Notes: generated from the letters alone by a model not told the origin. A DNA stretch of 64,000 bases from an uncultured Candidatus Saccharibacteria bacterium (GCA_964459335.1 CAYWJX010000001.1:33642-97641), one strand, 5' to 3'; shown: positions 17,863 through 63,018, numbered from the stretch's first letter. Made by a program: numbers and translations.

Positions 17863-18588
17863 ATGTCTAAGGTCGGATTGGAACGATTTCGTGAAGATAA
17901 TCGCAAACTCGAAGAAATCAAACTCCAAGAACGCAAAAATCTTTTGGAAGACATGATTACGGACGAGAAAGAAGAGGGCGCTGCAAGCTTGCTCTCTTAC
18001 GTCAAAGAAGGTGTCTTGGGGTGCGCAAAATACAAAGAAGGAGAACATGATTGGGCTCTCTATGCGGTTACCTTGATGCCCTCTCTGTTCAAATTTGAGT
18101 ATTACGACCGTTTTGCGGAGTTAAAATACGCAATTTGGAAAGATGTAGTCGAGGCATGGCTCACTACTCCAACGCCGGAAGAAGAAAGGTTATTCTTGCA
18201 AGCTCTGCTTGGCAAACCGCACGAACAACCACGTGCCGATCAACCAGAAGGGCGGAAAATATGCGAAAAGCTCAAATCGATTATGCGCGATGCGATTAAC
18301 GCACATACGCACTATGGGAACATTGACAGGCTCGTACGAGCGCTCACGGCAGGGGCGGTCGAGGGTAATCTGCTTATTGACTCGCGTAACTATGATTTTG
18401 TGAACCTAATCAGCATGGCAATTGCCAAGCACTCAAGCCATTACCAAAATCGAGTCGCTGCTTTGTTTCTCGAGTTGTTTGGTATGAGTACCACTCCCTC
18501 AGAGGTAACTGATATAGCTCTCTACAAAGCTTTGGAACAAAACAAAGAATTGATAGCACAAGAGATTGCAAAATCTCAAAAATCTTAA
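17863..18588 (+). CDS. Hypothetical protein (241 aa)
   Basis: Clean ORF followed by a strong terminator. No family recognised. Confidence 0.5.
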   Translation: MSKVGLERFREDNRKLEEIKLQERKNLLEDMITDEKEEGAASLLSYVKEGVLGCAKYKEGEHDWALYAVTLMPSLFKFEYYDRFAELKYAIWKDVVEAWLTTPTPEEERLFLQALLGKPHEQPRADQPEGRKICEKLKSIMRDAINAHTHYGNIDRLVRALTAGAVEGNLLIDSRNYDFVNLISMAIAKHSSHYQNRVAALFLELFGMSTTPSEVTDIALYKALEQNKELIAQEIAKSQKS

Positions 18589-18645: not shown

Positions 18646-18718
18646 GTGGACCGTAGCGGAGTCGAACCGCTGACCTCGTCAATGCGAATGACGCGCTCTA
18701 CCAGCTGAGCTAACGGCC
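18646..18718 (-). tRNA. tRNA-Ala (anticodon CGC), no encoded CCA
   Basis: The reverse complement GGGCCGTTAGCTCAGCTGGTAGAGCGCGTCATTCGCATTGACGAGGTCAGCGGTTCGACTCCGCTACGGTCCA has G3:U70 and the anticodon loop TTCGCAT. Confidence 0.8.
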
Positions 18719-18952
18719 CAATTTTTTCTTGAGAAAACGTCTGCCGGCCGCAGATTTAAAATAAACTTCACGCTTTCTCGCCTCTACAAAGGTATCAAAT
18801 TTTTCAACGTATACAACTGCCAATTCTTTCATGCGAGAAGTTGTCTTTGTTTTTCCTTGGGAATGTTCGATCAGTCTTCTTGGTAAATTATTTGTTACTC
18901 CCTTGTAAAATTTACCCTTATTATCCTGTAACACATATGCACTATATTCCAT
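18710..18952 (-). CDS. GIY-YIG nuclease family protein (small, UPF0213-like)
   Basis: YVLQDNKGKFYKGVTNNLPRRLIEH matches the GIY-x10-YIG motif. Its 3' end overlaps the tRNA-Ala(CGC) 5' end by about 9 nt. Confidence 0.65.
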   Translation of the reverse strand: MEYSAYVLQDNKGKFYKGVTNNLPRRLIEHSQGKTKTTSRMKELAVVYVEKFDTFVEARKREVYFKSAAGRRFLKKKLGR

Positions 18953-19064: not shown

Positions 19065-19117
19065 TACCACTTAACTACGGGCCCTAATATAAAAAAATAT
19101 ATTAGTCAAAATCTAAG

Positions 19118-19188
19118 TCGGGGCGCCGAGAATCGAACTCGGGTTTCACCCACCCGAAGGGTGTATAATGCCACTATAAGACGCCCCG
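19118..19188 (-). tRNA. tRNA-Pro (anticodon CGG), no encoded CCA, atypical D-arm
   Basis: The reverse complement CGGGGCGTCTTATAGTGGCATTATACACCCTTCGGGTGGGTGAAACCCGAGTTCGATTCTCGGCGCCCCGA has the anticodon loop TTCGGGT (G37), a normal T-arm TTCGATT, and flanks that extend the acceptor stem. Confidence 0.7.
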
Positions 19189-19206
19189 ACTTAGATTTCG
19201 ACCGGC

Positions 19207-19235
19207 TGTATAACTCCACTATAAGACGCCCCGAC
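19207..19235. repeat. 29-nt direct repeat (2 mismatches) of 19162-19190, the 5' acceptor and D-arm portion of the tRNA-Pro gene
   Basis: tgtataatgccactataagacgccccgac is matched by tgtataactccactataagacgccccgac, 44 nt further right. Confidence 0.55.
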
Positions 19236-19329
19236 ACTGCCTCCGACTAACGTTGCAAATATAGCAATAAAAAAAGGGCCGAGCAACGCTCGACCCTTAA
19301 AGCATTCCGCATTTGTTTCTGAAATGCGG

Positions 19330-19698
19330 CTAATGGGGCGCCAAGCCATTGATCATATTACCAAGACAAGTGGCTGCGATTCCTAAATGTTTAGCGAAGG
19401 GCAGAAATTCCTTAATACGCCGCAGATGTTCTACTTCTGCAACGCGCCGCGGTTTGTTCTCTTCCATGATAAGTATGCTGCGGATCTCCCAATGATGTTC
19501 TTTGCGTCCGCCGTCGACAGCGCAAACGACCACCCTAACGTTGAGATGCTTGTCCGCCTTGCGATAAAAATCGAGTTCAACGCGGTCAACGTCGTCAGAA
19601 AAGCTTCCGAAAACGGTAGCCGATCTTACGATTTTGAATTCATTTCCTCCCACCACAACAGGGACGCGACTTTCTGTCTCTCGAAGCCGGAAGTCCAT
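19330..19698 (-). CDS. Hypothetical protein (122 aa), low confidence
   Basis: An ORF only. The surrounding region is rich in hairpins and tRNAs, and the overlapping plus-strand ORF 19387..20010 runs through tRNA-Val and is rejected. Confidence 0.3.
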   Translation of the reverse strand: MDFRLRETESRVPVVVGGNEFKIVRSATVFGSFSDDVDRVELDFYRKADKHLNVRVVVCAVDGGRKEHHWEIRSILIMEENKPRRVAEVEHLRRIKEFLPFAKHLGIAATCLGNMINGLAPH

Positions 19699-19901
19699 TT
19701 TTTCTTTTCCTTCCCCAATGTTCTTGTTGTCCGCTTGGCCTCATGTCAGCGGCACGGTAAAAACTTTACCACTAAATTTAGCCCTGTCCAGTTTTATTAT
19801 GAACAGACAACTTTGTGGTCACGAGTCGACTTTGCTCGTCAGCAAAGTCGCTCGCTACCCCGCCTCACTGCTACGCAAATGCGTAGCAACGTTCCGGCCT
19901 G

Positions 19902-19949
19902 CACCAAGACAAAAGAATCTGCCGCAGGGCAGATTCTTTTGTCTTGGTG
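19902..19949 (-). terminator. Long perfect hairpin at the 3' end of tRNA-Val (22-bp stem) whose right arm includes the encoded CCA end
   Basis: caccaagacaaaagaatctgcc-gcag-ggcagattcttttgtcttggtg. It lies immediately downstream of tRNA-Val on the minus strand. Confidence 0.45.
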
Positions 19950-20019
19950 CACCCTTCAGGATTCGAACCTGAGGCCTCACCCGTGTGAAGGGTGCGCTCT
20001 AACCAACTGAGCTAAGGGT
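19944..20019 (-). tRNA. tRNA-Val (anticodon CAC), CCA encoded
   Basis: The reverse complement GCACCCTTAGCTCAGTTGGTTAGAGCGCACCCTTCACACGGGTGAGGCCTCAGGTTCGAATCCTGAAGGGTGCACCA is a canonical cloverleaf. Confidence 0.85.
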
Positions 20020-20071
20020 GCAAACATATACAGATTGCAATATATAGAGATTTTAGTAAAGTAATGAAGCA

Positions 20072-20144
20072 AGGGCCCTTAGCTCATTTGGTAGAGCGCC
20101 TCATTTGCAATGAGGAGGTGACCGGTTCGATCCCGGTAGGGTCC
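20072..20144 (+). tRNA. tRNA-Ala (anticodon TGC), no encoded CCA
   Basis: GGGCCCTTAGCTCATTTGGTAGAGCGCCTCATTTGCAATGAGGAGGTGACCGGTTCGATCCCGGTAGGGTCCA has G3:U70 and the anticodon loop TTTGCAA. Confidence 0.85.
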
Positions 20145-21637
20145 ACAGAAGCAGACATCGGAGACAAAACTAGGTCTTTCGCCTTGAAAACAGAGGATAT
20201 TTTGTTGGTTCCAAAAACTTTGCCATCAAACGTCATACCTAAGGGGAATTGGAACCATTGCAGCTTGGTTTGTGTTGCAATACTAGCTTTTTTCCATATT
20301 TTGCTTGGCGCTTGCAGATACTCTGACGTGAAGTCGATTGCCTCCTCCGGCGATATATCGATATTGTTCAAGAGTGCAAGGCTCGCGTGTGCGTCGGTAG
20401 TTTCTTTTTCTACAAGCGCGAGCTGTTGCTTTAGTACAGCATCGCTTAACACGCCCTGTATATTTTTCTTAACAAGAGCTGTTTGTTGCTCGGCGAGTTG
20501 CTCTATATGTTTCTGTAATCTCTCAGCTTCCTTTCGTGCATCCGCCGTAGCCTCATAAAACTCTTTCTTAACCAAACGCTTAAGCTTGGCAATATGTTCG
20601 TTCTCAAATGCGTAAGAGTCCATCTTAAAGGCAAACTGCCGCTCGAACTCATCCCGCTGGTAGTTGCTACCTTTGCCTCCAAAGCGATAGAAAGCATATT
20701 TGGTGCCGGAGCGCCCGCTCGACCAGCTCCCCGTCAATTTCAAGCCCTCAGGATTGAATATAAAACGGCGGAGGGGAAAGTCGGCATTATCCTTTTTGTA
20801 CTCGTTTACCTTGTATCCTTTGTTTTTGAGTACGCGCTGCACTTGTTCAAATAAAGTATCGGTTACTATCGCTTCAAACAATCCTCGATGACTCTCTCCA
20901 AACTTCTCTATAACACGCGTATAGAGCCTATTACGCAGCATCTCGCGGAAGTATTGGCTAGAGACAGGCCTGCCACCTTTTACTTTCAAACCATCTTTTA
21001 CCATCCTGCGCCAAACGTCCTCTGTGGTGTACAAGCCTGTGGCGATAAGCTGAAAACTCCTTAACACGAGCGGAGCCATTTCGTTAGGAGCGATAGTGGG
21101 CTTGCCGTTGAGTTGTGCTCCATTTGAGTAACCGACTGGGGCACCCCATACATAGCGTCCATCGCGTACCGCATCGCGCATACCGTTGGAGCAACGCTCG
21201 GCACGTACCTCGTTATCAAACTGCGCGATGCTTGCCATCGTATTTTCCATGAAGCGTCCTGCGGGATTGTTCTCAAAAAGCTCAGTGGTGGATTTAATTT
21301 CCACTCCGTAACGCTTTAACAAGATGCGGAGCTGGCTGTAGTCATCGGTGTTGCGGGAGAGACGGTCAATTTTGTATACGATAACTGCGGATATTTGATT
21401 TTTCTTTTGAGTACAATAACCGAGCATCTTTTGGAGCTGTGTACGGTCTGCGGTCTTAGCACTCTCGCCACGCTCGATGAATACCTCCACAACGTCAAAA
21501 CCATTTTTACTCGCATACTCGCGGCAAATCTTTTCCTGCGTGGCAAGAGAGTTACCCTCCTCGGCCTGCTCCATAGTGGAGACACGGACATAGACAACGG
21601 CTCGCTTATTATTTGGTTGGCTGTTTGATTGGTACAT
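20084..21637 (-). CDS. Large serine recombinase (resolvase/invertase N-terminal domain plus recombinase and zinc-ribbon domains)
   Basis: The N-terminus AVVYVRVSTMEQAEEGNSLATQ carries the catalytic Ser, and VIVYKIDRLSRN is the resolvase motif. Total length is 517 aa. The last 19 codons (DPTGIEPVTSSLQMRRSTK) are the reverse reading of the tRNA-Ala(TGC) 3' half. Confidence 0.85.
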   Translation of the reverse strand: MYQSNSQPNNKRAVVYVRVSTMEQAEEGNSLATQEKICREYASKNGFDVVEVFIERGESAKTADRTQLQKMLGYCTQKKNQISAVIVYKIDRLSRNTDDYSQLRILLKRYGVEIKSTTELFENNPAGRFMENTMASIAQFDNEVRAERCSNGMRDAVRDGRYVWGAPVGYSNGAQLNGKPTIAPNEMAPLVLRSFQLIATGLYTTEDVWRRMVKDGLKVKGGRPVSSQYFREMLRNRLYTRVIEKFGESHRGLFEAIVTDTLFEQVQRVLKNKGYKVNEYKKDNADFPLRRFIFNPEGLKLTGSWSSGRSGTKYAFYRFGGKGSNYQRDEFERQFAFKMDSYAFENEHIAKLKRLVKKEFYEATADARKEAERLQKHIEQLAEQQTALVKKNIQGVLSDAVLKQQLALVEKETTDAHASLALLNNIDISPEEAIDFTSEYLQAPSKIWKKASIATQTKLQWFQFPLGMTFDGKVFGTNKISSVFKAKDLVLSPMSASVDPTGIEPVTSSLQMRRSTK

Positions 21638-22295
21638 AATTTTTTTGTTCCAAATATGCCTCTACAATAATTTTTGCAAGATACGCCAAGGCATCATCCT
21701 CATTAGTAATTATACCCTCGGCCATAGATGTTGGAGGGTCATGTTTATTGTCTGGTTTATAAGGCTTGTCGGGTAACATAAAGATAAAAAATTATGTACA
21801 CCCAAAGGAGTAGCTCCAATGGTCGACTCTCCAAAACATTTGAAGAGCCGACTTCTAGTGCCCTCGCAGTCAGGGCAGAAGAAATAAAAAAGCCCGACTG
21901 AATATCAGCTAGGTTTTTTGGTAAGCGCACAAAGTGTGCTCAAGCAAAATACCTAAGTTAATCTGAATCCAGCCGGGGGGACATCACATGCAAACTTCTT
22001 ACGTTGCTTTATAGTTCCAGGCTATAGCCCTTACCGCTTCAACACACCCTAAGGCCACAGACATATCCATGACGTTGTGACTTCCATGCACTAGGGTGGC
22101 TCCATCACGCTAAAGACCCGTTTATGTTTAACATCTAACTGCCATCAGTGTATTCCTACCAGACAGAGGGGTAAACTTTACACGGCAGCTCTAACCGTGT
22201 CGTGGTATCAACCCCTTTGCCGATGTCATGTAAATAGAATGAGGAGACATGGAAGCAGCTGGACAGCGCAGCGGCGGCGCAGTAGGATTTCCCCG

Positions 22296-22631
22296 ATGTC
22301 CGTAGATACCTATTCCTACTTCCTCATCATCCTGTCCGGCTTTTTTACCGTATGGGGGTACCGCAAAGCGAGCCAATGGATGCTCGTCTCAAACAAAAAG
22401 CCAAGCGACTTTGAATACCTCGCCTACAGCGCTTTCTGGGGCATCATACTTCTCGCGTTGTACGAGGAAATTGAGCGCCATCATCCCGACCAAATATCTA
22501 AGCTCCTTACCAACCCATATTCTGCAGGCGTGTTACTTTCCGTATTGGGCATGGTCGTGGGAATCTGCACATTCTTTACCCTCGTCATGCTAAAAACTTT
22601 CTTCAATAACTTTAGAGGCTCACGTTTTTAA
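22296..22631 (+). CDS. Small hypothetical membrane protein (111 aa from the internal Met)
   Basis: Three predicted TM helices. It is convergent with, and overlaps, the 3' end of the tyrosine recombinase gene. Low confidence. Confidence 0.3.
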   Translation: MSVDTYSYFLIILSGFFTVWGYRKASQWMLVSNKKPSDFEYLAYSAFWGIILLALYEEIERHHPDQISKLLTNPYSAGVLLSVLGMVVGICTFFTLVMLKTFFNNFRGSRF

Positions 22632-23517
22632 AGCACCGAAATACCTCTCTCGACTGTAACTTGGCATCCAGCTCGTCGTTATACACCAGTAACATGTCGA
22701 GCGAGTGATGGCGTGTAAACTTTCGCGCATCCATCGGGTTAAGCCTCCGCAGTATAGTGGTCGCATAATAGTGTCTGCACCCGTGCACCACTTTTTTAAT
22801 GCCGAGCGGCTTCATAAGCCGGTGCATGTCTCTCTTTATAGTCATGGTGCTTAGCCGCGCCGCTTTGCGGTTGCTAAAGCTTCTGAACAGCACCCCCGAA
22901 GATATCCCCGCAGCTCGTAGATATTGTCGCAATGCTGTTACTGTCTGTGGTGCGAGGTATATAGGTTCTTTATCATCGCGGCCTTTGCCTTGTATGTATG
23001 CGATGCCAGTTGGCAGGCGCAAGTCTTCCACATCGAGCCTTGTAACTTCTATTTGCCGCAAGCCCTGCACGATTAGCAGAGCAAAAACGGCTCGAAGTCG
23101 GGCATTGTATGGTGTTGGCGGCAACTTCCGCATCATGCGTGCCATTGCCTGCACCTCCTCCTCGGTGAGCCCCTCCCTGCGGTGCAGTTTACTTTGTCGA
23201 AAGCCTTTGATGCCTGCGGATATGTCGGCGGGTATTGCTCCTATGCGGTATAGCTCGCGCACAAACACCTTCGCCACGGTAAAGTATTTATTTTTACTCG
23301 CGATAGATAGCCGTTCATCCCGCGCTAGCATCCGCTTGTACTCAACAACTGAGTTTCGATTAAAGCCGATCCGGCCGACAAAAGACACAAACAGCTCCAC
23401 CCGTTGCCGGTACTCTTTGCGCGTTCCCTCGCATACATCGAGCCCGTCAAATACCTCGGTAAGTTTGTCCGCAGCGTTTGGTTTTAAAAGTATCGCCAAC
23501 TGCGGAGTAGTGGTCAT
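22612..23517 (-). CDS. Tyrosine-type site-specific recombinase / integrase (XerC/D-like)
   Basis: The C-terminal catalytic region is HGCRHYYATTILRR (HxxR) ... LLVY (Tyr nucleophile), with an N-terminal SAM-like domain. 301 aa. Confidence 0.85.
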   Translation of the reverse strand: MTTTPQLAILLKPNAADKLTEVFDGLDVCEGTRKEYRQRVELFVSFVGRIGFNRNSVVEYKRMLARDERLSIASKNKYFTVAKVFVRELYRIGAIPADISAGIKGFRQSKLHRREGLTEEEVQAMARMMRKLPPTPYNARLRAVFALLIVQGLRQIEVTRLDVEDLRLPTGIAYIQGKGRDDKEPIYLAPQTVTALRQYLRAAGISSGVLFRSFSNRKAARLSTMTIKRDMHRLMKPLGIKKVVHGCRHYYATTILRRLNPMDARKFTRHHSLDMLLVYNDELDAKLQSREVFRCFKNVSL

Positions 23518-23519
23518 GG

Positions 23520-23933
23520 CTAGTGTTCACCCTCTTCGTAAAGGATATGCCGCATCTCAACGCCATGCTGTGCAAAAGGCGGTTCCAACATTTTGCTTCG
23601 GTGGCATTTTGTCGGGTCGCTCTCACTGCATAGCACGCACATTTGCTCCCCGCGCTGTACCATGCGCACCAATTCTTTTATAGCCCCCTCGTAATCACGG
23701 TTAGCGCCTCGTCCACCGAGTCTGTCGCCATAGAAGGTGTATTGGATATGTGCCAGTGTAAGCGCCTCTTGTAAGGGCTTCTGAGAAAAATGCGGGTGTC
23801 TGTGACTGAAGGGATAGGAACGTACGTCTATAACATGCTCGACGCCGTTGTCGCGGAGCTTGTCTAAAAAAGTGGAGAGAGAATGATTACCGTGCCCAAG
23901 AGATTTAAGAAATAACTGACGTTGTTTTTGCAT
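23520..23933 (-). CDS. DUF488 family protein
   Basis: LKSLGHGNHSLSTFLDKLRDNGVEHVIDVRSYPFSHRHPHF...YTFYGDRLGGRG matches the DUF488 (YeaO-like) pattern. It lies directly upstream of the integrase with a 2-nt gap. Confidence 0.6.
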   Translation of the reverse strand: MQKQRQLFLKSLGHGNHSLSTFLDKLRDNGVEHVIDVRSYPFSHRHPHFSQKPLQEALTLAHIQYTFYGDRLGGRGANRDYEGAIKELVRMVQRGEQMCVLCSESDPTKCHRSKMLEPPFAQHGVEMRHILYEEGEH

Positions 23934-24041
23934 ACTTTAATCCTAAGAGACACCAGACCAAATGCAATCAAGCGACTAAGTTTAGCCACTTTTAAAGCGT
24001 AAAGGTTTTCCAGTCTCTGTGGACAACTTTTCCCCATTAGG

Positions 24042-24215
24042 TTACTCGGACTTTGTTTCCCAACACGTGATTGCGATAAGCATGGCACTGAGGAGCCAAA
24101 ACACAGTTGCGGATACGTTCCCAAATATCGCCGTTATGGCACCTATAACCCAAAAAATACCAATGATGTTGCCCTGTGCGGTTGTGTAATGGTTTTTTAA
24201 CTTATTTTTCCCCAT
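24042..24215 (-). CDS. Small membrane protein (57 aa)
   Basis: MGKNKLKNHYTTAQGNIIGIFWVIGAITAIFGNVSATVFWLLSAMLIAITCW has two TM helices. It is in tandem with the frameshifted gene below. Confidence 0.4.
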   Translation of the reverse strand: MGKNKLKNHYTTAQGNIIGIFWVIGAITAIFGNVSATVFWLLSAMLIAITCWETKSE

Positions 24216-24217
24216 AA

Positions 24218-24396
24218 CTATTTTTTTACCGCCCACACTAAGGCAACTACCCACCCTATAAGGGTCCAACCCAAAAAGAAGTTCAACACAGCTATTGCAA
24301 CCCTATTCTCTTTTTCGTAAGTAAAAGCAATAATACTCGGAAGCCAATACACACCTCCTACTACTAGTACAAGAAGCGCTACCAATATTCCAGCCA
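24218..24396 (-). pseudogene. Superinfection-immunity-like (Imm_superinfect family) small membrane protein gene, disrupted by an apparent 1-nt frameshift
   Basis: One frame gives MAGILVALLVLV then a stop. The other frame gives ...GGVYWLPSIIAFTYEKENRVAIAVLNFFLGWTLIGWVVALVWAVKK, which matches the family signature (LPSIIA...LGWTxIGWxxALxWA). The 179-nt span is not a multiple of 3. Confidence 0.45.
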
Positions 24397-24800
24397 TAGA
24401 TTAATACATTTAGCTATTAATCCTAGTGATGAACACAAAGCCCGCCACCAGGAGGCCTTGCGGCCCTATACAAGTTTCCCTGTATAACGTAAGTCACGCC
24501 CTGATAACGGGTTTTCTGTGACTTACGATTTTCGCCCTTACCCTAGCACTGCTAGGGGTTAGGACCTTACTCCTATTAAGTTTTTACATCTGTAATCATA
24601 CCAAACCAACCGCAAGCGTCTATAGGCATTGTTAGAAAGGCTCTATCCCGCGCTAGCTCCCTCTAAGCCTACACAGCTGTTGCTGTGTGGAGTAAGTATA
24701 CTTTTTATAGAATACACTTCTAAATGCTTAAAATGGGAGGCAATACGGTCAAACCTCTTCCGATGGATAAAAATTTCGAACGAGCGTATCATTCTTGCTA

Positions 24801-27416
24801 ATGGATGACATCTATCAGCAAATAGTCAAATGGTCATCTGATAGACCCCTTTGGCTGCGTGATGCTCTGCGTCGCCTTGTTCTCAATGGTTCTTTGGAAC
24901 AAAGGGACTATAACGAACTGGCGGATATCTGCAAAACACAGCGTGGAATTGATGTTGGTCATCCTGTTCCCAAACCACTACCTTTGACCGCCGAACATGT
25001 TCCAAACGCTACAAGCTTGGGTGGCTCTATTGCACTCACGGAGTTGCATAATTTTCGAGGTATAAACCGTATCTCACAAGAAGCTAAACTTAGCCTTGAA
25101 CCTGTTGGACTCAATGTCGTATATGGCGAGAATGGAGCTGGCAAGTCGGGATATACTCGTGTGCTTAAAAAAATCTGTCGTGCACGTGGTAACAACGATG
25201 AAGAAATATACCAAGATATATTTTCCGAGGATGAGGAAGAGCAAGGTGCAGAGGTCAATTTTACTGAAGGCGGTCAAGTAAGAACATTTAAATGGGAGCC
25301 TGATGCGCTAGTTCCTCAAGAGCTCTCAGCTATAAGTGTTTTCGACAGCGAGTGCGCACTTGTGCATGTAGATGGAAGCAACGAACTTGCATACCAACCA
25401 TTTGGTTTGGACTTGATGACACGAGTAGCAGAAGTTGCCACTACACTCAGCGCCCGCTTTAGAGCCGACTATGCAGTCTCTAAAAAAGCCGCGGACAATT
25501 TTAGTGACTTTCTGGCAGGCACTCAAACCTACGGCAAATTGAATAATCTACACGCAGGCTTGAGCGAAACCACTCTTAAAGAGCTGTTTGAGTTTACCGG
25601 TGCAGAAAAAAAGGAGTTAACAGCTGTAGCCAAGCAATTATCTGACTTTAAAACAAACGACCCTGGTAAAAAAATCCTTGAACTGAGTGGCCAAATAAGG
25701 CGGCTAGAAGAGCTCAACACTCATCTCGACACTTTGGTTCGTACTTATTCAAAACCAGCACTAGACCGAATCGTAGTGCTCAGAGAAAAGCTTTTCGCCG
25801 CAAAAGAAACCGTAGCCCTAAGCAGAAAGAGCTTCGAGGACGCTTCAGTACAAGGTGTCGGAGGAGACGCCTGGATGCAGTTATGGGAATCAGCTCGTCG
25901 CTACTTTGAGCATGAAGCGTACCCAACTAAAACTTTTCCTGTAGACCGAGGTGTTCGGTGTGTTCTCTGCCAACAGGAACTTTCCACCGAGGCTAAAGAC
26001 AGGCTTCGTCACTTCGAGGGGTTTGTACAGGCGGAAGCCCAGCAAGCGTATGATGTAGCTCAAGAAGCGCTTGTAGAAGCGCAGGAAGCGTTGGAAGGGA
26101 TAGAAATGCTGCCCGCGCACATAAAACCTACACTTCAAGAAGATATCCCTGCTCTGCATAAACAACTTAGTGGCGAGATAACAGAGATTCTAAAAGGCAT
26201 AAAAATACTTCAAACATCGGTACCGTATCTTGCGGCAGAAAGGTGCAGTGCTTTGGAACTTAAGGTAACAAACACGGTTACGCTCACTATAAAGAAGTTG
26301 GTGACCGCGCTGGAGAAGGAGCGTAATACTTATATAAAATTGCAAAATGACAGTACTGCTGTAATACGGCCATTAGAACACCAAGCGAATGAGCTACAAG
26401 CAGCCCAACAAGCCGCTCGCTCCTTTGAACGTATAAGGAAGGAAATATCTCGCCAAAAGCTTGAGAACAAACTTGAGTCTTGCATTGCCGACACTGATAC
26501 TACAGGTATAACACGCAAAGCAGATGCTTTGAGCAAAGTAATAACCAAAGACTTATGCCAACGGTTTTCTGCAGAGGCAAAAGGGCTGGATGTTGGAAAT
26601 AAGATAGACATTAGTCTTGAAGTGTCAGAGGCGAAGAAGGGAGCCTCATACCACCAGATTGTCCTTTCCTCCTCCACCCAAGATGTTCCCGTGAGCAAGA
26701 TATTAAGCGAGGGAGAGAATCGTGCAATAGCGCTTGCATCTTTTTTAACAGAGGTAGCGCTGGCTCCTTTTCCATCAGCCATTGTGTTGGATGACCCAGT
26801 TTCTTCTCTTGACCACAAGCGGCGAGAAAGAATTGCTCGCCGACTAGTTGAGGAGGCAACCAAACGCCAAGTTATTGTTTTCACGCACGACTTGCGCTTT
26901 GTGTTTGACCTCCAAAACGCTACTGATACAGTTGGAGGTTCAGTAAACTTTCAGACTGCTTATGCCACCAACAGCGATACTGGTCGTATTGATGAGGGAT
27001 TGCCTTGGGAAGGTATGACTGCAGAAGCTCGCTTGAAGACGTTGCGGGGTCATTTACAACGAGCTGGAGCCTTGTATAAAGCTGACGAGATTAGAGAGTA
27101 TAAACGAGATGTAAAGCAAATATATCGCGACCTGAGGGAAACATGGGAACGAGCTGTCGAGCTTAATCTTCTAGGAGGCGTAGTAACTCGCTTTAATGCT
27201 GATATTCGTACGAAAAAGAAAGGACTTATGCCGTTAGTAGATATATCAGCAGAAGATTGTGAGATAGTTGATGCAGCGGTAACTCGTTGCAGCAACTTTG
27301 CACACGATGCAGCCTTTGAAGGTGTTCCATCTATACCACCGCCCGATGAGGTTAGCCAAGACATAGAGCAACTTTGGTCGTGGATTTCTGAAATTAAGAC
27401 TCGGCGTGCGCATTAA
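24801..27416 (+). CDS. Rad50/SMC-like AAA ATPase of the AAA_13 (RloC/PrrC-like) type, with a coiled-coil insert, a CxxC zinc hook and an uncharacterised C-terminal domain of about 170 aa
   Basis: Motifs: Walker A GENGAGKSG; a long coiled-coil insert between the ATPase lobes; CVLC (DRGVRCVLCQQEL) in mid-coil; the ABC signature LSEGENRAIALASFL; Walker B IVLDDPVSSLD; and the H-loop VIVFTHD. The ATG at 24801 is used rather than the TTG at 24795. Confidence 0.8.
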   Translation: MDDIYQQIVKWSSDRPLWLRDALRRLVLNGSLEQRDYNELADICKTQRGIDVGHPVPKPLPLTAEHVPNATSLGGSIALTELHNFRGINRISQEAKLSLEPVGLNVVYGENGAGKSGYTRVLKKICRARGNNDEEIYQDIFSEDEEEQGAEVNFTEGGQVRTFKWEPDALVPQELSAISVFDSECALVHVDGSNELAYQPFGLDLMTRVAEVATTLSARFRADYAVSKKAADNFSDFLAGTQTYGKLNNLHAGLSETTLKELFEFTGAEKKELTAVAKQLSDFKTNDPGKKILELSGQIRRLEELNTHLDTLVRTYSKPALDRIVVLREKLFAAKETVALSRKSFEDASVQGVGGDAWMQLWESARRYFEHEAYPTKTFPVDRGVRCVLCQQELSTEAKDRLRHFEGFVQAEAQQAYDVAQEALVEAQEALEGIEMLPAHIKPTLQEDIPALHKQLSGEITEILKGIKILQTSVPYLAAERCSALELKVTNTVTLTIKKLVTALEKERNTYIKLQNDSTAVIRPLEHQANELQAAQQAARSFERIRKEISRQKLENKLESCIADTDTTGITRKADALSKVITKDLCQRFSAEAKGLDVGNKIDISLEVSEAKKGASYHQIVLSSSTQDVPVSKILSEGENRAIALASFLTEVALAPFPSAIVLDDPVSSLDHKRRERIARRLVEEATKRQVIVFTHDLRFVFDLQNATDTVGGSVNFQTAYATNSDTGRIDEGLPWEGMTAEARLKTLRGHLQRAGALYKADEIREYKRDVKQIYRDLRETWERAVELNLLGGVVTRFNADIRTKKKGLMPLVDISAEDCEIVDAAVTRCSNFAHDAAFEGVPSIPPPDEVSQDIEQLWSWISEIKTRRAH

Positions 27417-27450
27417 TTAATGGAAATGATTGAGGTTAAAATATAAATCT

Positions 27451-27855
27451 ATGCACCGATACCTTGCCTATGGCTCAAATATGAGCGCAGAACAAATGGC
27501 TAAAATAGACCGCGCACCCGATTCGCACAAGTTAGGTGTGGCGGAACTCCCAAACTATGAGTTTTTTATAAACGCCCGGGGCGTCGCTTCCATCCGAGAA
27601 AAACAAGGCAAAATAGTATGGGGAATACTGTATGAGCTTTCGGAAATGGACGAAGCAAGGTTGGATAAAAAAGAGGGTATCCCTAGATTTTATGTAAAGA
27701 AAAACCTACCAACTCTCAACGCTTTTTCTTATATTGCCCAACCAGCCGACGACGGCAGGCCGCGAGAGGGATATTTGGAGAGAATAATAAAAGCTGCACA
27801 GGACAATGCATTTCCGGTTGAGTACGTTGAGGAGTTAAAGGAATGGAGTGATTAA
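27451..27855 (+). CDS. Gamma-glutamyl cyclotransferase-like (GGCT/AIG2 family) protein
   Basis: The N-terminus MHRYLAYGSNMSAEQM has the YxAYGSNM motif of the GGCT fold. It starts 35 nt after the ATPase stop on the same strand. Confidence 0.7.
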   Translation: MHRYLAYGSNMSAEQMAKIDRAPDSHKLGVAELPNYEFFINARGVASIREKQGKIVWGILYELSEMDEARLDKKEGIPRFYVKKNLPTLNAFSYIAQPADDGRPREGYLERIIKAAQDNAFPVEYVEELKEWSD

Positions 27856-28313
27856 TGCCTTGTAATGGGAATGAGGTAACATGGAACCTATGGCCGACCA
27901 TCCCGAGGACACTCCACTTGATGAGGAGGATATAGCCCAACTTGCCCAAATCTTTGACCTACTAGCGCAATGGGACTGGGAGCAAAAAGAGCGCGAAAGA
28001 GGGCCCCATTGACCTACGGTTGCATTATATGTTTTTAGCCACATTTTGGTTGCGGTGTCCTGTTTTATTTTTTGACGCCCTTATCAATACCTTCGACCAA
28101 CTTTTCTGCGGCGTGCTCAATGTAACCTCCTACACTTAGACCCATCTTTTCTCCTTTCTTAAGACTGTTGTTCTAACTCTCTACTGTAGTTACCCTCCGC
28201 CGATAAAACTGGGCTCTATAAGACCACCATGTTCACTCTTAAGTATGTCTGCTAGTTGATTGCACTCTAGCGCAAAGTGGTTCCAAAATGCTACGCTGGA
28301 GTCCACCATAGTT

Positions 28314-28661
28314 TTACGCAGTTGTGCCAATGGCGTCGATTTTGGCTGCAAGGATGAAGTCATTCATTGAGAGGCCTTTTGTTGCGTGTGTTGAAAGATC
28401 AACTTTTACTTTCCCATAACTCACTGCAAGGTCGGGATGGTGACCCTCCTCTTCAGCAATTGCCGCGATTTTATTTACAAACACCATTGTCGCTTTAAAG
28501 TCGGGGAAGATATAATTCTTACTGATTGAGAGCGCGTCGTTTGCAAGCGTCCAGCCTTGGAGCCTCTCCAGCAACGCTTTTGCATCGGCAGGCACGATAG
28601 GCGCCGTGCCGCCTTCGCATGGGATGCACTTTTGCTCGGTAAGTGGTTTTTCAATTTCCAT
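28314..28661 (-). CDS. Pterin-4a-carbinolamine dehydratase (PCD/DCoH)
   Basis: EEEGHHPDLAVSYGKVKVDLSTH is the PCD signature. Confidence 0.8.
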   Translation of the reverse strand: MEIEKPLTEQKCIPCEGGTAPIVPADAKALLERLQGWTLANDALSISKNYIFPDFKATMVFVNKIAAIAEEEGHHPDLAVSYGKVKVDLSTHATKGLSMNDFILAAKIDAIGTTA

Positions 28662-33842: not shown

Positions 33843-36014
33843 TCAAGCTTTTGTCTTTTTTGATTTTTTTGCAGATGCGCCGCCCATTAAGGCCGCTATT
33901 TCGTCTCTTAGGATGGCGGCAGTTTCGAAGTCGAGGTTTTTAACGGCTTCGGCCATGTCGCGCTTTTTTTGCGCAATAAAGCTGCGCGGATTCTTTTTGT
34001 ACTCGCCCTGCTCTATCTCGAGCATCTCGTGCACTGCCTTGCCGTGCTCGGTGCGCAACTCGTCGGTAATGTCTCGTATTGCTTTGTGGATTGAGACCGG
34101 CGTGATGTGATGCTCTTTGTTGTACGCAACTTGCACCGCGCGGCGGCGGTTGGTCTCGCCTATCGCTTTTTTAAGCGAGTCGGTTTCTTGGTCGGCATAG
34201 AGTATCACGCGACCCTCAATGTTGCGCGCGGCGCGGCCGATGGTTTGTATCAGCGACGTTTCGGAGCGTAAAAATCCTTCTTTGTCGGCGTCGAGTATCG
34301 CCACCAACTGCACCTCGGGCAAGTCGAGCCCTTCGCGCAAAAGATTGACGCCCACGAGCACGTCATAGGCGCCCTTGCGCAAGTCGGTGAGCGTCGTGAT
34401 ACGGTCCAACGTTTCGATATCGCTGTGCAAATAGGCCGCTTTAATCTGCCTATCTTTTAAATAGTCGGCCAAATCCTCAGCCATTTTTTTGGTGAGTGTC
34501 GTGACCATCACGCGCCCGCCATTTTTAATCACCTTTTCAGCCTCATTTAAAAAGTCTTGCACTTGGCCTAGAGAAGGCCGATTCTGTGAGCGCTGCGAGC
34601 TGCCAAGGGGAGCAGAATCGGCCTTCTCTAGGCTTTCAACTGGCAATGAAGAAACCTGCTGATACTCACCTTGGCAGCTCGCAGCGTGAGTCTCATCAGG
34701 TTTCTTCATCGCTCCTCCCGTGACCGGTCGCACAATAATCTCCGGGTCAATCAAGCCGGTGGGCCTAATGATTTGCTCGACCACTTTGGTGGAGTGCGCT
34801 TTTTCATACGCGCCCGGCGTGGCGCTGGTGTAGATGGTCTGCCCCACATTTTTTTCGAACTCATCAAACATGAGCGGGCGGTTGTCGACAGCCGACGGCA
34901 GGCGGAATCCAAAGTCGACTAAATTTTCTTTACGCGCTCTGTCGCCTGCATACATGCCGCCAAGTTGCGGCACGGTGACATGGCTCTCGTCGATGATTGT
35001 CAAAAAGTCGGGCGTGCCATCGGCCTTGTGCGGGAAGTAGTCGAGCAAGGTAAACGGCGGTTGGCCGGGGCTCCGGCCGTCAAAATGCCACGAGTAATTC
35101 TCTATCCCGTTGCAATAGCCAATCTCGCGTATCATCGCGAGGTCGTAGGTGGTGCGGCGTTTTAAACGCTCGGCCTCAAGTAACTTGCCAGCGCGTTCAA
35201 ACTTTTTTAACTGTTCTTTAAGCTCAAGTTTAATATCCTCCACCGCTCGCGCGCGCTCGTCCTCGGGCGTCACATAATGTTTTGCCGGGAAAAGAAATAG
35301 CGACGCCTTTGGCTCAAGCTCGGCGCGCGTTATAGCATCAATCACGCGCACTTTCTCAATAAAATCTCCGTTGAACTCTACGCGATACAGCACGCGTTCG
35401 CCTGTCGGCATTATCTCAACGCTGTTGCCGAGTGCACGAAACGTACCCGGCGTTACATCGGCCGTCGTGCGCGTAAAATATACGCCAATGAGATCGCGGA
35501 TGAGCTCGGCGCGATTTTTTTTGACGCCTGCGGCAAGCTCGAGATGCACTTTGCGATATTGCTCGGGCGAGCCCAAACCATAAATACACGAAACGCTTGC
35601 TACAATTATTACATCACTACGGCTAAGCAGAGCCTGTGTTGAGGCATGGCGGAGCCTGTCAATCTCTTCGTTTATCTGCGCTTCCTTCTCGATATAGGTG
35701 TCGCTCGTGGGGATGTACGCCTCGGGCTGATAATAGTCGTAATACGAAACAAAATATTGCACGGATGCGTCGGGGAAAAACTCTCGATACTCCTGCGCGA
35801 GCTGAGCCGCGAGCGTTTTGTTGTGTGCAATCACGAGCGTAGGCTTTTGCGTTTGCGCAATAACATTGGCCACGGTAAAAGTCTTGCCCGAGCCGGTAAC
35901 ACCGAGTAAAGTTTGATGCCGCTCTCCACTCTTTAGCCCTGCCACGAGCTCGGTAATGGCCTTGGGCTGGTCGCCCGCCGGCTGATAAGGTGATTTGAGT
36001 TTAAACGTTGCCAT
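33843..36014 (-). CDS. uvrB: Excinuclease ABC subunit B, with an in-frame insertion of about 47 aa made of two hairpin elements
   Basis: The helicase motif GVTGSGKTF and the UvrB-specific domains are present throughout. The segment KKPDETHAASCQGEYQQVSSLPVESLEKADSAPLGSSQRSQNRPSLG replaces the short loop between VRPV and QVQDFLNEAEK. Confidence 0.95.
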   Translation of the reverse strand: MATFKLKSPYQPAGDQPKAITELVAGLKSGERHQTLLGVTGSGKTFTVANVIAQTQKPTLVIAHNKTLAAQLAQEYREFFPDASVQYFVSYYDYYQPEAYIPTSDTYIEKEAQINEEIDRLRHASTQALLSRSDVIIVASVSCIYGLGSPEQYRKVHLELAAGVKKNRAELIRDLIGVYFTRTTADVTPGTFRALGNSVEIMPTGERVLYRVEFNGDFIEKVRVIDAITRAELEPKASLFLFPAKHYVTPEDERARAVEDIKLELKEQLKKFERAGKLLEAERLKRRTTYDLAMIREIGYCNGIENYSWHFDGRSPGQPPFTLLDYFPHKADGTPDFLTIIDESHVTVPQLGGMYAGDRARKENLVDFGFRLPSAVDNRPLMFDEFEKNVGQTIYTSATPGAYEKAHSTKVVEQIIRPTGLIDPEIIVRPVTGGAMKKPDETHAASCQGEYQQVSSLPVESLEKADSAPLGSSQRSQNRPSLGQVQDFLNEAEKVIKNGGRVMVTTLTKKMAEDLADYLKDRQIKAAYLHSDIETLDRITTLTDLRKGAYDVLVGVNLLREGLDLPEVQLVAILDADKEGFLRSETSLIQTIGRAARNIEGRVILYADQETDSLKKAIGETNRRRAVQVAYNKEHHITPVSIHKAIRDITDELRTEHGKAVHEMLEIEQGEYKKNPRSFIAQKKRDMAEAVKNLDFETAAILRDEIAALMGGASAKKSKKTKA
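34568..34631. repeat. Hairpin element copy B (core variant 2, opposite orientation) inside uvrB
   Basis: The inverted repeat ctagagaaggccgattctg / cagaatcggccttctctag flanks tgagcgctgcgagctgccaaggggag. Confidence 0.7.
34646..34709. repeat. Hairpin element copy C (core variant 1) inside uvrB, 14 nt from copy B
   Basis: The inverted repeat atgaagaaacctg / caggtttcttcat flanks ctgatactcaccttggcagctcgcagcgtgagtctcat. Confidence 0.7.
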
Positions 36015-36019
36015 CCAAT

Positions 36020-36703
36020 TTACTGTACCGCATTTCGTTCAAACTTGGGAGTTAAACTCCCAAGTAGCCATTGCATTTCCTTTTCTTGCTTTTTACGCTC
36101 AACAATCATTTCTAGAGCTTCATTAGCAAATTTTTTATACGCATCTGGACTCTCAAACTGTCCTAAAATAACTTCCTTTTCGCATATAGATCCCATATGA
36201 CCCAATTCTGAGTCCATATATTCCGTCCAGCTTGAAGCACTGAGCTTGGGAGTTAAGCTCCCAAGCTGGTTATTAAGATTTACATAAACGCTTGTGTGCA
36301 AAAGCTGCTCGTTTGATTCGACATGAACAGATTTATACGTGCCTTGGAATAGGCCGCCGGACCTTGAGTATTTTTCATTGAAATAGTTGGTGTAACCGGT
36401 TCCAAGCCTCTGCATAAATTTTTGAATTCCTTTTTCGGACGTTTGCTTCAAAAGCAAATGAAAATGATTTGGGTTAAGACAATAACACACCACATCAACC
36501 AATTTGGGAGTTAAACTCCCAAGTTGTGTTTCTTTTTGGAAGCGATGTTCAAACAAGCTGCCAATAGGATTAGGCAAATTAAATGCTTGGATACTCTCTA
36601 AAAATCTGCTCAGATCATCTGCGTCTGAGAATATGTCGCGTTTTTCGACGCCACGATTAAACACGTGGTAAAATTCCCCTTGCTCTAAAACTATCGGTCT
36701 CAT
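36020..36703 (-). CDS. IS200/IS605-family HUH (Y1) transposase / REP-associated tyrosine transposase-like
   Basis: GEFYHVFNRGVEKRDIF, the HUH motif NHFHLLL, and the catalytic-Tyr region GTYKSVHVESNEQLLHTSVYVNLNN are present. The ATG start is at MRPIVLEQ. The ORF-track TTG start at 36739 lies inside palindrome P4. The ORF carries three in-frame palindrome copies, each translated LGSLTPK. Confidence 0.75.
   Translation of the reverse strand: MRPIVLEQGEFYHVFNRGVEKRDIFSDADDLSRFLESIQAFNLPNPIGSLFEHRFQKETQLGSLTPKLVDVVCYCLNPNHFHLLLKQTSEKGIQKFMQRLGTGYTNYFNEKYSRSGGLFQGTYKSVHVESNEQLLHTSVYVNLNNQLGSLTPKLSASSWTEYMDSELGHMGSICEKEVILGQFESPDAYKKFANEALEMIVERKKQEKEMQWLLGSLTPKFERNAVQ
36043..36065. repeat. Palindrome P1 (acttgggagttaaactcccaagt)
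   Basis: Perfect palindrome at the 3' end of the transposase CDS. Confidence 0.8.
36243..36267. repeat. Palindrome P2 (agcttgggag-ttaag-ctcccaagct)
   Basis: 10-bp arms. Internal to the CDS and translated QLGSLTPKL. Confidence 0.8.
36501..36525. repeat. Palindrome P3 (aatttgggagttaaactcccaagtt)
   Basis: Imperfect, with one mismatch. Internal to the CDS. Confidence 0.7.
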
Positions 36704-36716
36704 GGCCGCGACTATA

Positions 36717-36743
36717 CCACTTGGGAGTTGAACTCCCAAGTGG
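36717..36743. repeat. Palindrome P4 (ccacttgggagtt-g-aactcccaagtgg)
   Basis: 13-bp perfect arms, immediately upstream of the transposase ATG. Confidence 0.8.
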
Positions 36744-37997
36744 TTAGCGAAATTTATACTGCTCTAAAAAATCGTTTTTAAATTGTGAAAAAGTGCCGTT
36801 TAAAATACTTTCGCGGGCTTGCTCACACAGGCGCGTCAAAAAACGGATGTTGTGCTGGCTCGCGAGGATTTGCCCCAGCATTTCGTGCGTCCGAAAAAGA
36901 TGGTGCACGTAGGCGCGGGTGTGATGCGTGCACACGATGCAATCGCACTCTTTGTCTATCGGGCCAAAGTCGCTTATATACTCCGCATTGGGTATCTGTA
37001 TCTTCCCTTTTGTTGTAAACAACCCGCCGTTGCGGCCGTTGCGCGTGGGGATGACACAATCAAAGGTGTCGACGCCATACTCGATGCCGAGCAAAATATC
37101 CGCGGGCTCGCCAACGCCGAGCCCATGCACCGGTATGTCCTCCGGCAACTCGGCAAGCATCGCAAGCGCCGACTCGAGCGAGTGTTCGCCGTATTTTTTA
37201 CTAAATGAGCCGCCGAGCCCAAAGCCGTCAAAGCCCATCTCGCCGATGGTTTGCGCACTCTTAAGGCGCAAGTCGTCAAACTGACCGCCTTGCGCGATGC
37301 CGTATATCATTTGCTTTTTATTTGCCTCAAAATTTTGACGGTGAGCGGCGAGACTCCGTTTGGCCCACGCATGTGTGCGCTCCATTGCTTCTTTTTGAAA
37401 CTCATAGGTGGCGGTGGGCGCGGTGCATTGGTCAAACGCAAAAAAGATATCCGCGCCAAGCTTGTGTTGTATCTCGACCGAGCGCTCGGGCGTAAAGCGA
37501 TGGAGCGAGCCGTCGATATGCGAAGTAAACGTAACACCGTCGTCGTCGATAATGGCGAGCTTGCCGTGGCTGGTCGCAAGTTCTTCGTCCCAAAAAGCCG
37601 GAAGAGGAAGTGAAGCTGGAGGAGGAGTTGCCGTCTGCTCACCTTGGCAGCTCGCAGCGTGAGCATCCAACAACTCCTCCTCCGGTTCCGGTTTTGAGAA
37701 TTTTGATATCTTCTTTCCAAATCCTTCTCCCAATGAAAATACTTGAAAGCCACCCGAGTCGGTCATGATGGGGCCGTCAAATCCCATAAACTTGTGGATA
37801 CCGCCCGCTTGGGCTATCAACTCCTCGCCCGGCGATAAATATAAATGATATGTGTTGGCAATGACCGTTTGCACGCCGAGCGCGCCAAATTGCGTTACAT
37901 CGACGCCTTTAACATCGGCTTTGGTAGCCACGGCAACAAACGCCGGCGTGTTGATGTCACCGTGCGGCGTATGTATTACTCTGGCTCTCGCTCGCAT
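36744..37997 (-). CDS. tgt: Queuine tRNA-ribosyltransferase, with an in-frame hairpin-element insertion
   Basis: The N-terminus IHTPHGDINTPAFVAVATKADVKGV and the zinc site CDCIVCTHHTRAYVHHLF are present. The inserted segment is ...EEELLDAHAASCQGEQTATPPPASLP... Confidence 0.9.
   Translation of the reverse strand: MRARARVIHTPHGDINTPAFVAVATKADVKGVDVTQFGALGVQTVIANTYHLYLSPGEELIAQAGGIHKFMGFDGPIMTDSGGFQVFSLGEGFGKKISKFSKPEPEEELLDAHAASCQGEQTATPPPASLPLPAFWDEELATSHGKLAIIDDDGVTFTSHIDGSLHRFTPERSVEIQHKLGADIFFAFDQCTAPTATYEFQKEAMERTHAWAKRSLAAHRQNFEANKKQMIYGIAQGGQFDDLRLKSAQTIGEMGFDGFGLGGSFSKKYGEHSLESALAMLAELPEDIPVHGLGVGEPADILLGIEYGVDTFDCVIPTRNGRNGGLFTTKGKIQIPNAEYISDFGPIDKECDCIVCTHHTRAYVHHLFRTHEMLGQILASQHNIRFLTRLCEQARESILNGTFSQFKNDFLEQYKFR
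37618..37683. repeat. Hairpin element copy D (core variant 1) inside tgt
   Basis: The inverted repeat ggaggaggagttg / caactcctcctcc flanks ccgtctgctcaccttggcagctcgcagcgtgagcatc. It is 66 nt long and frame-preserving. Confidence 0.7.
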
Positions 37998-60987: not shown

Positions 60988-61090
60988 GTGAGTAAGTATA
61001 TCTCACTGCGGGTCGATGTTGGAACCATTGTCGCAAAAGAAAAAGCCGCCCACACTCCAGTTGGAGGGAGCGGCCAAAACGCGGTGGTCT

Positions 61091-61333: not shown

Positions 61334-61454
61334 GGGATTCTCCCGTATTAGTCCGAATATATAATAAATACAAACGTATTAAAAGTCAATAGCTGGCCGT
61401 CTGGGACGATATCCGAACTATTTTAAGCCATTAATTGAGTGTTTTGAGACTTTT

Positions 61455-61895: not shown

Positions 61896-61975
61896 GATTG
61901 GTCTTTATTAATATAGCTTAAATATTAGCACTTAGCATTGATTGGCCGTCTAGGATGATATCTGAACGGCTTTGC

Positions 61976-62509: not shown

Positions 62510-62514
62510 TTTCT

Positions 62515-62955: not shown

Positions 62956-63018
62956 ACGCTGTTGTAACCATTATGCAATCATGCTATGGTGTTGTCCAGA
63001 TAAGACAGAGAGGCCAAA

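Follow-up and report, generated by a model that had tools for sequence, protein, structure and literature searches.

A putative integrative island at a tRNA-Ala gene of a Paceibacterota genome, with its serine integrase gene split at the attachment site

Is the segment that separates a tRNA cluster from the PCD-ddl-uvrCAB housekeeping block in an uncultured bacterium a mobile element, and if so, where are its ends and which of its two recombinases defines them? We addressed this question in a 64,000-nucleotide stretch of DNA (GCA_964459335.1, CAYWJX010000001.1:33642-97641), hereafter the window, with positions counted from its first nucleotide. It is deposited under the name of an uncultured Candidatus Saccharibacteria bacterium; the relatives recovered with its Ddl protein place the host in the Paceibacterota, within the candidate phyla radiation (CPR). 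An earlier note, made by a model from the sequence alone, had proposed a mobile island at 19207-28310 that carries a large serine recombinase (LSR) and a tyrosine recombinase. Our analysis strongly favors a single integrative island of ~8.16 kb at 20147-28306, whose integrase gene, that of the LSR, is split at its own attachment (att) site. The segment is absent from the nearest relative, the same short core stands at both of its ends, the two parts of the LSR gene lie at opposite ends, and many sibling loci have the same layout. The island may still be able to excise. The features that define it are the following.

20073-20146, plus strand: tRNA-Ala(UGC), the integration target, whose 3′ end faces the island (ARAGORN; Rfam, 65.8 bits).
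20084-21637, minus strand: LSR gene in its integrated form, 517 amino acids (aa) (Resolvase, 7e-35; Recombinase, 3e-5; PHROG 95 integrase, 2e-71).
20141-20146, plus strand: attL core GTCCAC, the last acceptor-stem bases of tRNA-Ala(UGC); the same hexamer recurs at attR.
21609-21779, minus strand: small open reading frame (ORF) with the conserved part MAEGIITNEDDALAYLAKIIVEAYLEQKNY, ending within the LSR start region; no Pfam match.
28190-28306, minus strand: detached 3′ exon of the LSR gene, VDSSVAFWNHFALECNQLADILKSEHGGLIEPSFIGGG followed by a stop codon, in frame from the core (tail hidden Markov model (HMM), 69 bits, E = 1e-18).
28301-28306, plus strand: attR core GTCCAC, 8 nt before the PCD stop codon.
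28314-28661, minus strand: PCD gene, followed by ddl and uvrCAB, beyond the right end of the island.

A scan anchored on Ddl, with one genome per species, yielded 80 Paceibacterota loci (loci are denoted below by L numbers). The typical order in these relatives is uvrBAC-ddl-PCD, tRNA cluster, atpBEFHA, and PCD and atpB lie 0.9 to 10.6 kb apart. Of the genomes with usable sequence, L002 is the closest; its Ddl protein is 91% identical to that of the window. By blastn, homology between the two runs through the last base of tRNA-Ala(UGC) at 20147 and restarts at ~28240; a single L002 contig spans the interval and has 133 bp where the window has 8.1 kb, and the tRNA gene is 94% identical to its final base. 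About 20 further relatives cover the region from PCD to atpB without island genes. Across the 80 loci these genes are absent, except for LSR homologues in L019, L026 and L067 and a fragment in L050. The proposal of an island integrated next to a tRNA gene is thus supported, both by the absence from L002 and by the 6-bp core that bounds the segment; its left limit, however, moves from 19207 to 20147, which leaves tRNA-Val, tRNA-Ala and orf122 outside.

The LSR ORF enters tRNA-Ala(UGC) antisense by 63 nt, an overlap that the earlier note does not mention. Residues 1-499 are encoded by the element, and the last 18 residues and the stop codon come from the antisense strand of the tRNA gene. On this strand, the attL core provides codons V498-D499 (GTG GAC); the att hexamer is thus a Val-Asp codon pair close to the end of the LSR coding sequence, which places the attachment site within the integrase gene itself. 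The catalytic domain is complete (PF00239, profile positions 1-145 of 145, with the motif VYVRVSTMEQ; TP901-1 integrase catalytic domain, 4e-11), the Recombinase domain PF07508 scores 24.5 bits against a cut-off of 21.1, and no NCBIfam equivalog cut-off is reached. The LSRs of L019, L026, L067 and L050 are 25-52% identical to that of the window, and all enter tRNA-Ala(UGC) in the same frame and have the same tRNA-encoded end.

The far end of the island became recognizable from loci in which no tRNA follows the LSR. In L089, L090, L093 and L119, the LSR gene runs through a few bases of the tRNA 3′ end and then into a sequence common to all four, and from these junctions we derived the pattern GTGGAC-N12-TTTYSRAAC. 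It occurs once in the window, at 28280-28306 on the minus strand, where 0.08 occurrences would be expected by chance even if one mismatch were allowed. Seven sibling islands, L067, L084, L085, L086, L088, L101 and L102, have exact matches as well, each upstream of the LSR and in its orientation. The earlier note had reported no clean attL/attR pair. Both sites are in fact present, as a 6-bp core instead of a long tRNA repeat: a long repeat of the tRNA-Ala 3′ end that could serve as attR was found neither as a 24-mer or 14-mer with at most three mismatches nor by short-word blastn, and neither the tRNA 3′ end nor the core arm recurs inside 20148-28279. In some sibling clades, the final 11-21 nt of the tRNA recur as a direct repeat at the far end, which delimits islands of 5.7-10.6 kb; the delimited sibling islands overall measure 2.5-10.6 kb. 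Extra direct or inverted fragments of the tRNA-Ala 3′ end occur in L094 (2149-2163 and 2270-2285) and L050 (11309-11321 and 11410-11433), just outside the LSR tail exon; these are probably scars of earlier integration or inversion.

What lies next to attR is the remainder of the LSR gene. The att arms are conserved over ~120 nt, and in the alignment the changes fall chiefly at third codon positions. Translated from GTG GAC, the arms read VD.S..FWN.F..E...L..IL... and reach a stop after 31-40 codons. This tail peptide is the contiguous C-terminus of full-length LSRs in L089 (a 526-aa open segment) and L090 (534 aa), and in 12 integrated islands besides that of the window it stands alone at the distal end. 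Joined together, the two halves from the window give 535 aa, in line with the contiguous LSRs. The ~450 bp at the right end that had been taken for ORF-free sequence therefore contains the last exon of the LSR gene, at 28190-28306. A profile of the tail found no match in L002 or L003; neither a search of 1.84 billion representative proteins for the tail peptide nor one of a word-indexed database for the C-terminal region was informative, the queries being too short or too divergent. The public gene call P0242, a 57-aa hypothetical protein at 28190-28363 on the minus strand, is an artefact that combines the tail exon with an antisense frame of the PCD 3′ end.

These observations suggest how the gene came to be split. 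Strand exchange probably fell inside the hexamer GTCCAC. The LSR of the free (attP) form would have ~535 aa and end in the conserved amphipathic tail FWN.F..E...L..IL. Since recombination would fall within GTCCAC, integration would part residues 1-499 from the last ~36 residues: the former would stay at the tRNA, where antisense read-through would add 18 unrelated residues, and the tail exon would be placed 8.1 kb away at attR, beside the PCD stop codon. The predicted attP junction reads ...TCTGCTTCTGTGGACTCCAGCGTAGCATTTTGGAAC... (GTCTCCGATGTCTGCTTCTGTGGACTCCAGCGTAGCATTTTGGAAC in the orientation of the LSR), and the predicted attB junction reads ...GGTAGGGTCCACCATAGTTTTACGCAG... (CCGGTAGGGTCCACCATAGTTTTACGCAGTTG on the plus strand of the window), such that a restored attB would yield a tRNA gene ending in ...GGGTCCACCA. 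The exchange of tails may alter the activity or directionality of the LSR, possibly together with the small ORF upstream of it.

This small ORF occupies part of the ~550-bp segment before the LSR gene that had been described as free of ORFs. Its motif, EDDAL.YLAK.LVEAY..QK, shows codon-like conservation upstream of at least 14 related LSRs, and an HMM of the motif has a single match in the window, the ORF at 21609-21779 (E = 4e-18). We regard its product as a candidate regulator or directionality factor. A 43-aa ORF at 27881-28012, considered as a second copy, was rejected by the HMM. A perfect 14-nt inverted repeat (21632-21645 and 21786-21799) brackets the small ORF; in a minimum-free-energy fold of the LSR mRNA (z = -1.96), it would hide the LSR start codon, and it is not conserved in the sibling loci.

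The arrangement is not peculiar to this genome. Scanning metagenomes with a tail-trimmed LSR alignment provided 80 more loci, 64 of which extend at least 110 nt past the LSR match. A convergent tRNA gene stands at the 3′ end of the LSR gene in 54 of these 64, and 48 of the 54 have an overlap of 21-220 nt between the LSR ORF and the tRNA. Where an LSR is at least 36% identical and has a tRNA beside it, the gene is always one for tRNA-Ala (12/12); for more distant LSRs, the tRNA genes are those for Glu, Pro, Leu, Arg, Ser, Asp, Phe and Ala. Unrelated queries led to the same layout in L161 (tRNA-Asn), in L169 and L170 (tRNA-Gly), and in L163 and L164, which are classed as viral. The cargo of the siblings includes CBASS in L050, type I restriction-modification in L019 and, according to precomputed Pfam matches, in L174, and a methyltransferase-type restriction-modification gene in the L161 island.

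Base composition also sets the island apart. The GC content of 20148-28239 is 0.464, compared with 0.502 for the whole window, and is the lowest of any 8.1-kb stretch in it. At third codon positions (GC3), the values are 0.386 for the ATPase gene, 0.44 for the GGACT-like gene, 0.52 for the LSR gene and 0.58 for the tyrosine recombinase gene, and core genes (atp, ddl, uvr) range from 0.57 to 0.66. The impression, gained by eye, that the island is richer in AT than its flanks was therefore correct. A gene order conserved in distant relatives, together with a flat composition, had been named as the finding that would speak against an island; as gene order varies and the GC shift is clear, this objection falls away.

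Between the two parts of the LSR gene lie the following features. The genes and tRNAs that had been named from the sequence were all recovered by the ORF listing, ARAGORN and Pfam.

22299-22631, plus strand: predicted small membrane protein, 110 aa, counted from an internal Met of ORF 22197-22631; annotated with 111 aa in L176; no family match.
22612-23517, minus strand: Xer-like tyrosine recombinase, 301 aa (Phage_integrase, 2e-16; R-H-R-H-Y residues seen by eye).
23520-23933, minus strand: DUF488 protein (Pfam DUF488, 7e-17; PADLOC PDC-M45B, 1.5e-29).
24042-24269, minus strand: small hydrophobic ORF, 75 aa, overlapping the end of the Imm_superinfect gene; annotated with 70 aa in L176; no family match.
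24218-24397, minus strand: Imm_superinfect small membrane protein, 59 aa, intact (PF14373, 64.3 bits, positions 1-42 of 42; PHROG 1039, 9e-16).
24425-24565, minus strand: LOOT RNA with a conserved 3′ extension (RF03000; Rfam part 24453-24565).
24795-27416, plus strand: AAA_13/Rad50-like ATPase with a CxxC hook (PADLOC PDC-S06; Pfam AAA_13).
27430-27855, plus strand: GGACT/AIG2-like gene with a gamma-glutamyl cyclotransferase fold, 13 nt after the ATPase gene (Pfam; PHROG 2520).
27856-28189, no strand assigned: spacer with short ORFs only; no Pfam or Rfam match and no homology to L002.

The short ORFs of the two gaps, here and upstream of the LSR, have no Pfam match. Taken together, the cargo looks like a small defense or exclusion set, which would comprise the PDC-S06-type ATPase with the GGACT-like gene, the Imm_superinfect gene led by LOOT, and DUF488 with the tyrosine recombinase. 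The ATPase matches PDC-S06, a candidate single-gene defense system, with E = 7.7e-201, its residues 6-871 aligning to positions 3-857 of the 858-position profile. Set against the RloC/PrrC anticodon nucleases, which combine an AAA_13 head and a CxxC hook with a C-terminal nuclease motif, its AAA_13 match covers positions 257-583 of 713, and the hook residues CVLC are visible. The nearest non-identical homologue is 39% identical, and homologues with a named organism come from other phyla. This closest homologue is itself carried by an island, the 9.6-kb segment 4871-14511 of L161, which has as its limits a tRNA-Asn(gtt) gene into which an LSR gene extends and an 11-nt repeat of the terminus of that tRNA, and which includes a CoiA_N-like gene. 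We considered the GGACT-like gene as a fixed partner of PDC-S06 and rejected this, given that it is absent beside the two closest ATPase homologues, which have a CoiA_N-like neighbor instead.

The LOOT RNA, absent from the earlier note, reaches 71.9 bits, above the Rfam gathering score of 46.4, over positions 1-121 of the 121-position model, and 125 bits with our own model R1. A promoter-like site precedes it (24622-24595), and the start codon of Imm_superinfect lies 56 nt downstream. The Imm_superinfect gene had been regarded as frameshifted; its 59-aa ORF nevertheless covers the whole Pfam domain. With Rfam and our own model, LOOT was also detected in the LSR islands of L067, L086, L087, L088, L094, L103, L105/L106, L109, L115 and L141, always on the island side and ~0.5-3 kb upstream of the LSR start; L029 has LOOT with no LSR or tRNA in view, and the RNA is therefore not exclusive to these islands. 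A hydrophobic ORF follows LOOT at 25-60 nt in all six loci examined, and in four of the six it is short. The 3′ extension, GTGGCGGGCTTTGTG, lies beyond the Rfam model and pairs with the loop of its hairpin 3. The resulting helix has 17 pairs, 10 of which show changes on both sides (12 sequences), and 93.5% of the helix cells are paired; when the 3′ partners were slid by 1-3 columns as a control, 33-48% of the cells of the whole structure paired. RNAs with the extension were located in L067 (13344-13492), L086 (5871-6020), L087 (1445-1581), L088 (7062-7207) and L094 (6426-6574). LOOT would thus be a cis-acting leader, not a free small RNA, which places this orphan RNA in a context: ahead of small membrane-protein genes, often within islands of this kind.

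The DUF488 gene lies 2 nt upstream of the tyrosine recombinase gene, and the two therefore form an operon-like pair. The recombinase stays below the NCBIfam equivalog cut-offs for XerC (67.5 against 335 bits), XerD (59.9 against 330) and XerA (92 against 220), and its homologues are ~50% identical across CPR lineages. The same pair, with DUF488 first, is found upstream of a co-oriented LSR in L128 (tRNA-Ser) and in L174/L175, where type I restriction-modification genes separate the pair from the LSR. In L169-L171 (tRNA-Gly), a tyrosine recombinase gene is upstream of a co-oriented LSR, with an unannotated 182-aa gene at the position of DUF488; L172 and L173 have the pair with no LSR in view. 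Both recombinases thus belong to the island, as had been proposed: the LSR delimits it, and the pair of DUF488 and tyrosine recombinase recurs inside sibling LSR islands. A target site of the tyrosine recombinase was not found; a 33-nt motif downstream of its gene is common to L172 and L174 and absent from the window and the other loci. Cargo shuffling, multimer resolution and help in excision are possible roles of the pair.

Could these parts have arrived separately? An LSR element and a tyrosine-recombinase element with DUF488, perhaps with a separate ATPase module, may have accreted at a tRNA hot spot, a scenario that we consider possible but rather unlikely. It would fit the heterogeneous GC3 of the four genes given above, the occurrence of the DUF488 pair beside a tRNA cluster with no LSR in view (L172, L173) and the additional tRNA 3′-end scars outside the tail exon in L094 and L050. 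Accretion is nonetheless difficult to reconcile with the lack of any internal tRNA 3′-end or core-arm copy within 20148-28279, and with the pair being found inside LSR islands at three other tRNA types, with order and orientation kept. Moreover, the halves of the LSR gene bracket everything between them, and LSR-mediated excision would therefore release the whole 8.16 kb. A small prophage or phage satellite is suggested by the PHROG matches to integrases, superinfection immunity and gamma-glutamyl cyclotransferase, as well as by two distant LSR relatives on viral-classed contigs, again beside tRNAs. However, tests with Pfam, PHROGs, NCBIfam and PADLOC revealed no capsid, terminase, portal, tail or replication gene in the ORFs that they covered, and the island has only 8.2 kb, like its delimited siblings of 2.5-10.6 kb with their defense genes; we judge a phage origin very improbable. 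That there is no island at all, and that native genes appear variable owing to incomplete metagenome bins, is scarcely credible. L001, with a Ddl protein 92% identical, does end 150 nt past ddl and is uninformative, but L002 bridges the interval on one contig, with 133 bp in place of 8.1 kb, and ~20 relatives span PCD to atpB without the genes.

Several findings count against an island whose integrase is split and still in use. The LSR of the window lacks the zinc-ribbon cysteines and has no match to Pfam Zn_ribbon_recom (PF13408); the pattern C..C...C..C is present in L019 and L026, and the cysteines are missing in the window and in L067. Contigs with a contiguous LSR show no circular (terminal) overlap, so we infer, and do not observe, that they represent free forms. 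In the tRNA-Glu(ttc) clade, the core is located two codons before the stop, and a detached tail is clear only in the tRNA-Ala clade. This does not support extending the detached tail to distant clades: the long tail is a feature of the tRNA-Ala clade, and what holds generally is that the core lies at the extreme 3′ terminus of the ORF. We saw neither a circular junction nor a read from an empty site, and the sole other copy, L176 (6.8 kb), is 100% identical and likewise integrated. L002, finally, was rejected as a virgin attB: a decayed attR arm lies beside its PCD gene, and the 95 nt that follow its tRNA match nothing in the window. The island was therefore lost there by imprecise deletion. 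In L003 (Ddl 82% identical), 41 nt of the LSR 3′ end are left beside the tRNA, with 94% identity. The remnants in L002 and L003 suggest a long residence, and the copy in the window could be fixed. An old insertion that preceded the split of the window, L002 and L003 and is now static would account for both traces and for the lack of a long direct repeat. Yet the window has an intact LSR body, an intact small ORF upstream of it and an intact tail exon of 38 codons; the tail scores 69 bits, against no match in L002 or L003. A new copy that re-invaded the site would account for these traces as well. An immobilized remnant is hence conceivable, though in our view doubtful, and we retain the reading of a single integrative island.

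Tested against known systems, a cargo island linked to a tRNA gene is of an ordinary kind; what is unusual is the serine integrase, the 6-bp core and the att site within the integrase ORF. Known large serine integrases mostly use protein-coding or intergenic targets, with attP outside the integrase ORF. The LSR described here resembles those of phages and integrative and conjugative elements (TP901-1, Bxb1, phiC31, A118, CcrB) in its resolvase and recombinase domains, short att sites and very short core, and differs in its tRNA 3′-end targets, in having attP in its own 3′ coding region and, in the clade of the window, in lacking the zinc-ribbon cysteines. With tRNA islands of the Islander/TIGER type, the element shares insertion at the tRNA 3′ end, an integrase at the tRNA junction, variable cargo, low GC and restoration of the tRNA; unlike them, it uses a serine integrase, and its repeat is shorter than their tens of bases, with 6 bp here and 11-21 nt in certain sibling clades. 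In the integration-dependent immunity of mycobacteriophages that Broussard and colleagues reportedly described in 2013, attP lies in the repressor gene and integration by a tyrosine integrase alters the C-terminus of the protein. The gene-borne attP and the change of C-terminus are alike, except that here the integrase would rewrite itself and there the repressor is changed.

The closest parallel is archaeal. In suicidal (SSV-type) tyrosine integrases, described in archaea only, the att site lies in the integrase gene and integration partitions that gene (PMC8371274). The position of the att site inside the integrase ORF, the tRNA target and the gene partitioned upon integration are shared. 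In contrast, the enzyme studied here is a serine recombinase in a bacterial host, and ~36 residues are detached, leaving the catalytic and DNA-binding domains in one piece. Tycheposons of Prochlorococcus are likewise small cargo elements at tRNA genes, in another phylum; a preprint counts 27 among 937 tycheposons and cryptic elements in which an LSR replaces the tyrosine recombinase, and no split integrase is mentioned in the text consulted. Our literature search, whose coverage was incomplete, returned no paper on tRNA-targeting LSRs in Patescibacteria and, as the only parallel, the archaeal suicidal integrases.

Tentatively, one may go further and propose that the LSR rewrites its own C-terminus, with a 535-aa form whose conserved helical tail favors integration and a 517-aa form whose tRNA-antisense tail leaves it either competent for excision or silenced. 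This would amount to a built-in directionality switch and to the first counterpart of the archaeal suicidal integrases that is bacterial and of the serine type, serving a large family of tRNA-targeting defense islets in Patescibacteria. We consider this proposal speculative and do not expect all of it to hold. The split-integrase layout suggests that direction could be controlled with no additional factor. Little is understood of gene exchange in Patescibacteria, whose genomes are tiny; islands of ~2.5-10.6 kb at tRNA 3′ ends, with a distinct LSR clade and defense cargo (CBASS, restriction-modification, PDC-S06), offer a concrete and recurrent vehicle for it. Serine integrases with short, defined sites in highly conserved tRNA genes are also of interest for genome engineering.

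The tRNA cluster outside the left end of the island is variable in its own right. Besides the target, ARAGORN places three tRNA genes here.

18646-18719, minus strand: tRNA-Ala(cgc).
19117-19188, minus strand: tRNA-Pro(cgg).
19945-20021, minus strand: tRNA-Val(cac).

The short tRNA-Pro repeat noticed earlier is real: the 5′ part of the gene is duplicated over 32 nt with 91% identity (19159-19190 and 19204-19235), and the duplicate at 19204-19235 is situated at the edge of an indel region at 19190-19750. A gene of the GIY-YIG family (18710-18952, minus strand, 80 aa, GC 0.37) separates tRNA-Ala(cgc) from tRNA-Pro and runs 10 nt into the 5′ end of tRNA-Ala(cgc). L002 is without this gene, and its two flanking tRNAs are 10 nt apart; tblastn found homologues in L004, L005, L021, L118, L133, L135 and L145. 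The regions of hyp241 (17863-18588, plus strand) and orf122 (19190-19750) are likewise absent or replaced in L002, and we therefore conclude that the tRNA cluster underwent several independent small indels besides the island. In most relatives, the tRNA-Ala(UGC) gene has the same orientation as ddl-PCD; in the window, L002, L003, L021 and L050, its orientation is the opposite one. Some lineages underwent an inversion of this gene, probably along with an island. Elsewhere in the window, two further stretches of low GC could represent other insertions: one at 36000-37000 (GC 0.42), after uvrB, and one at 61000-63500 (GC 0.37-0.41), beside tRNA-Gln at 63355-63426.

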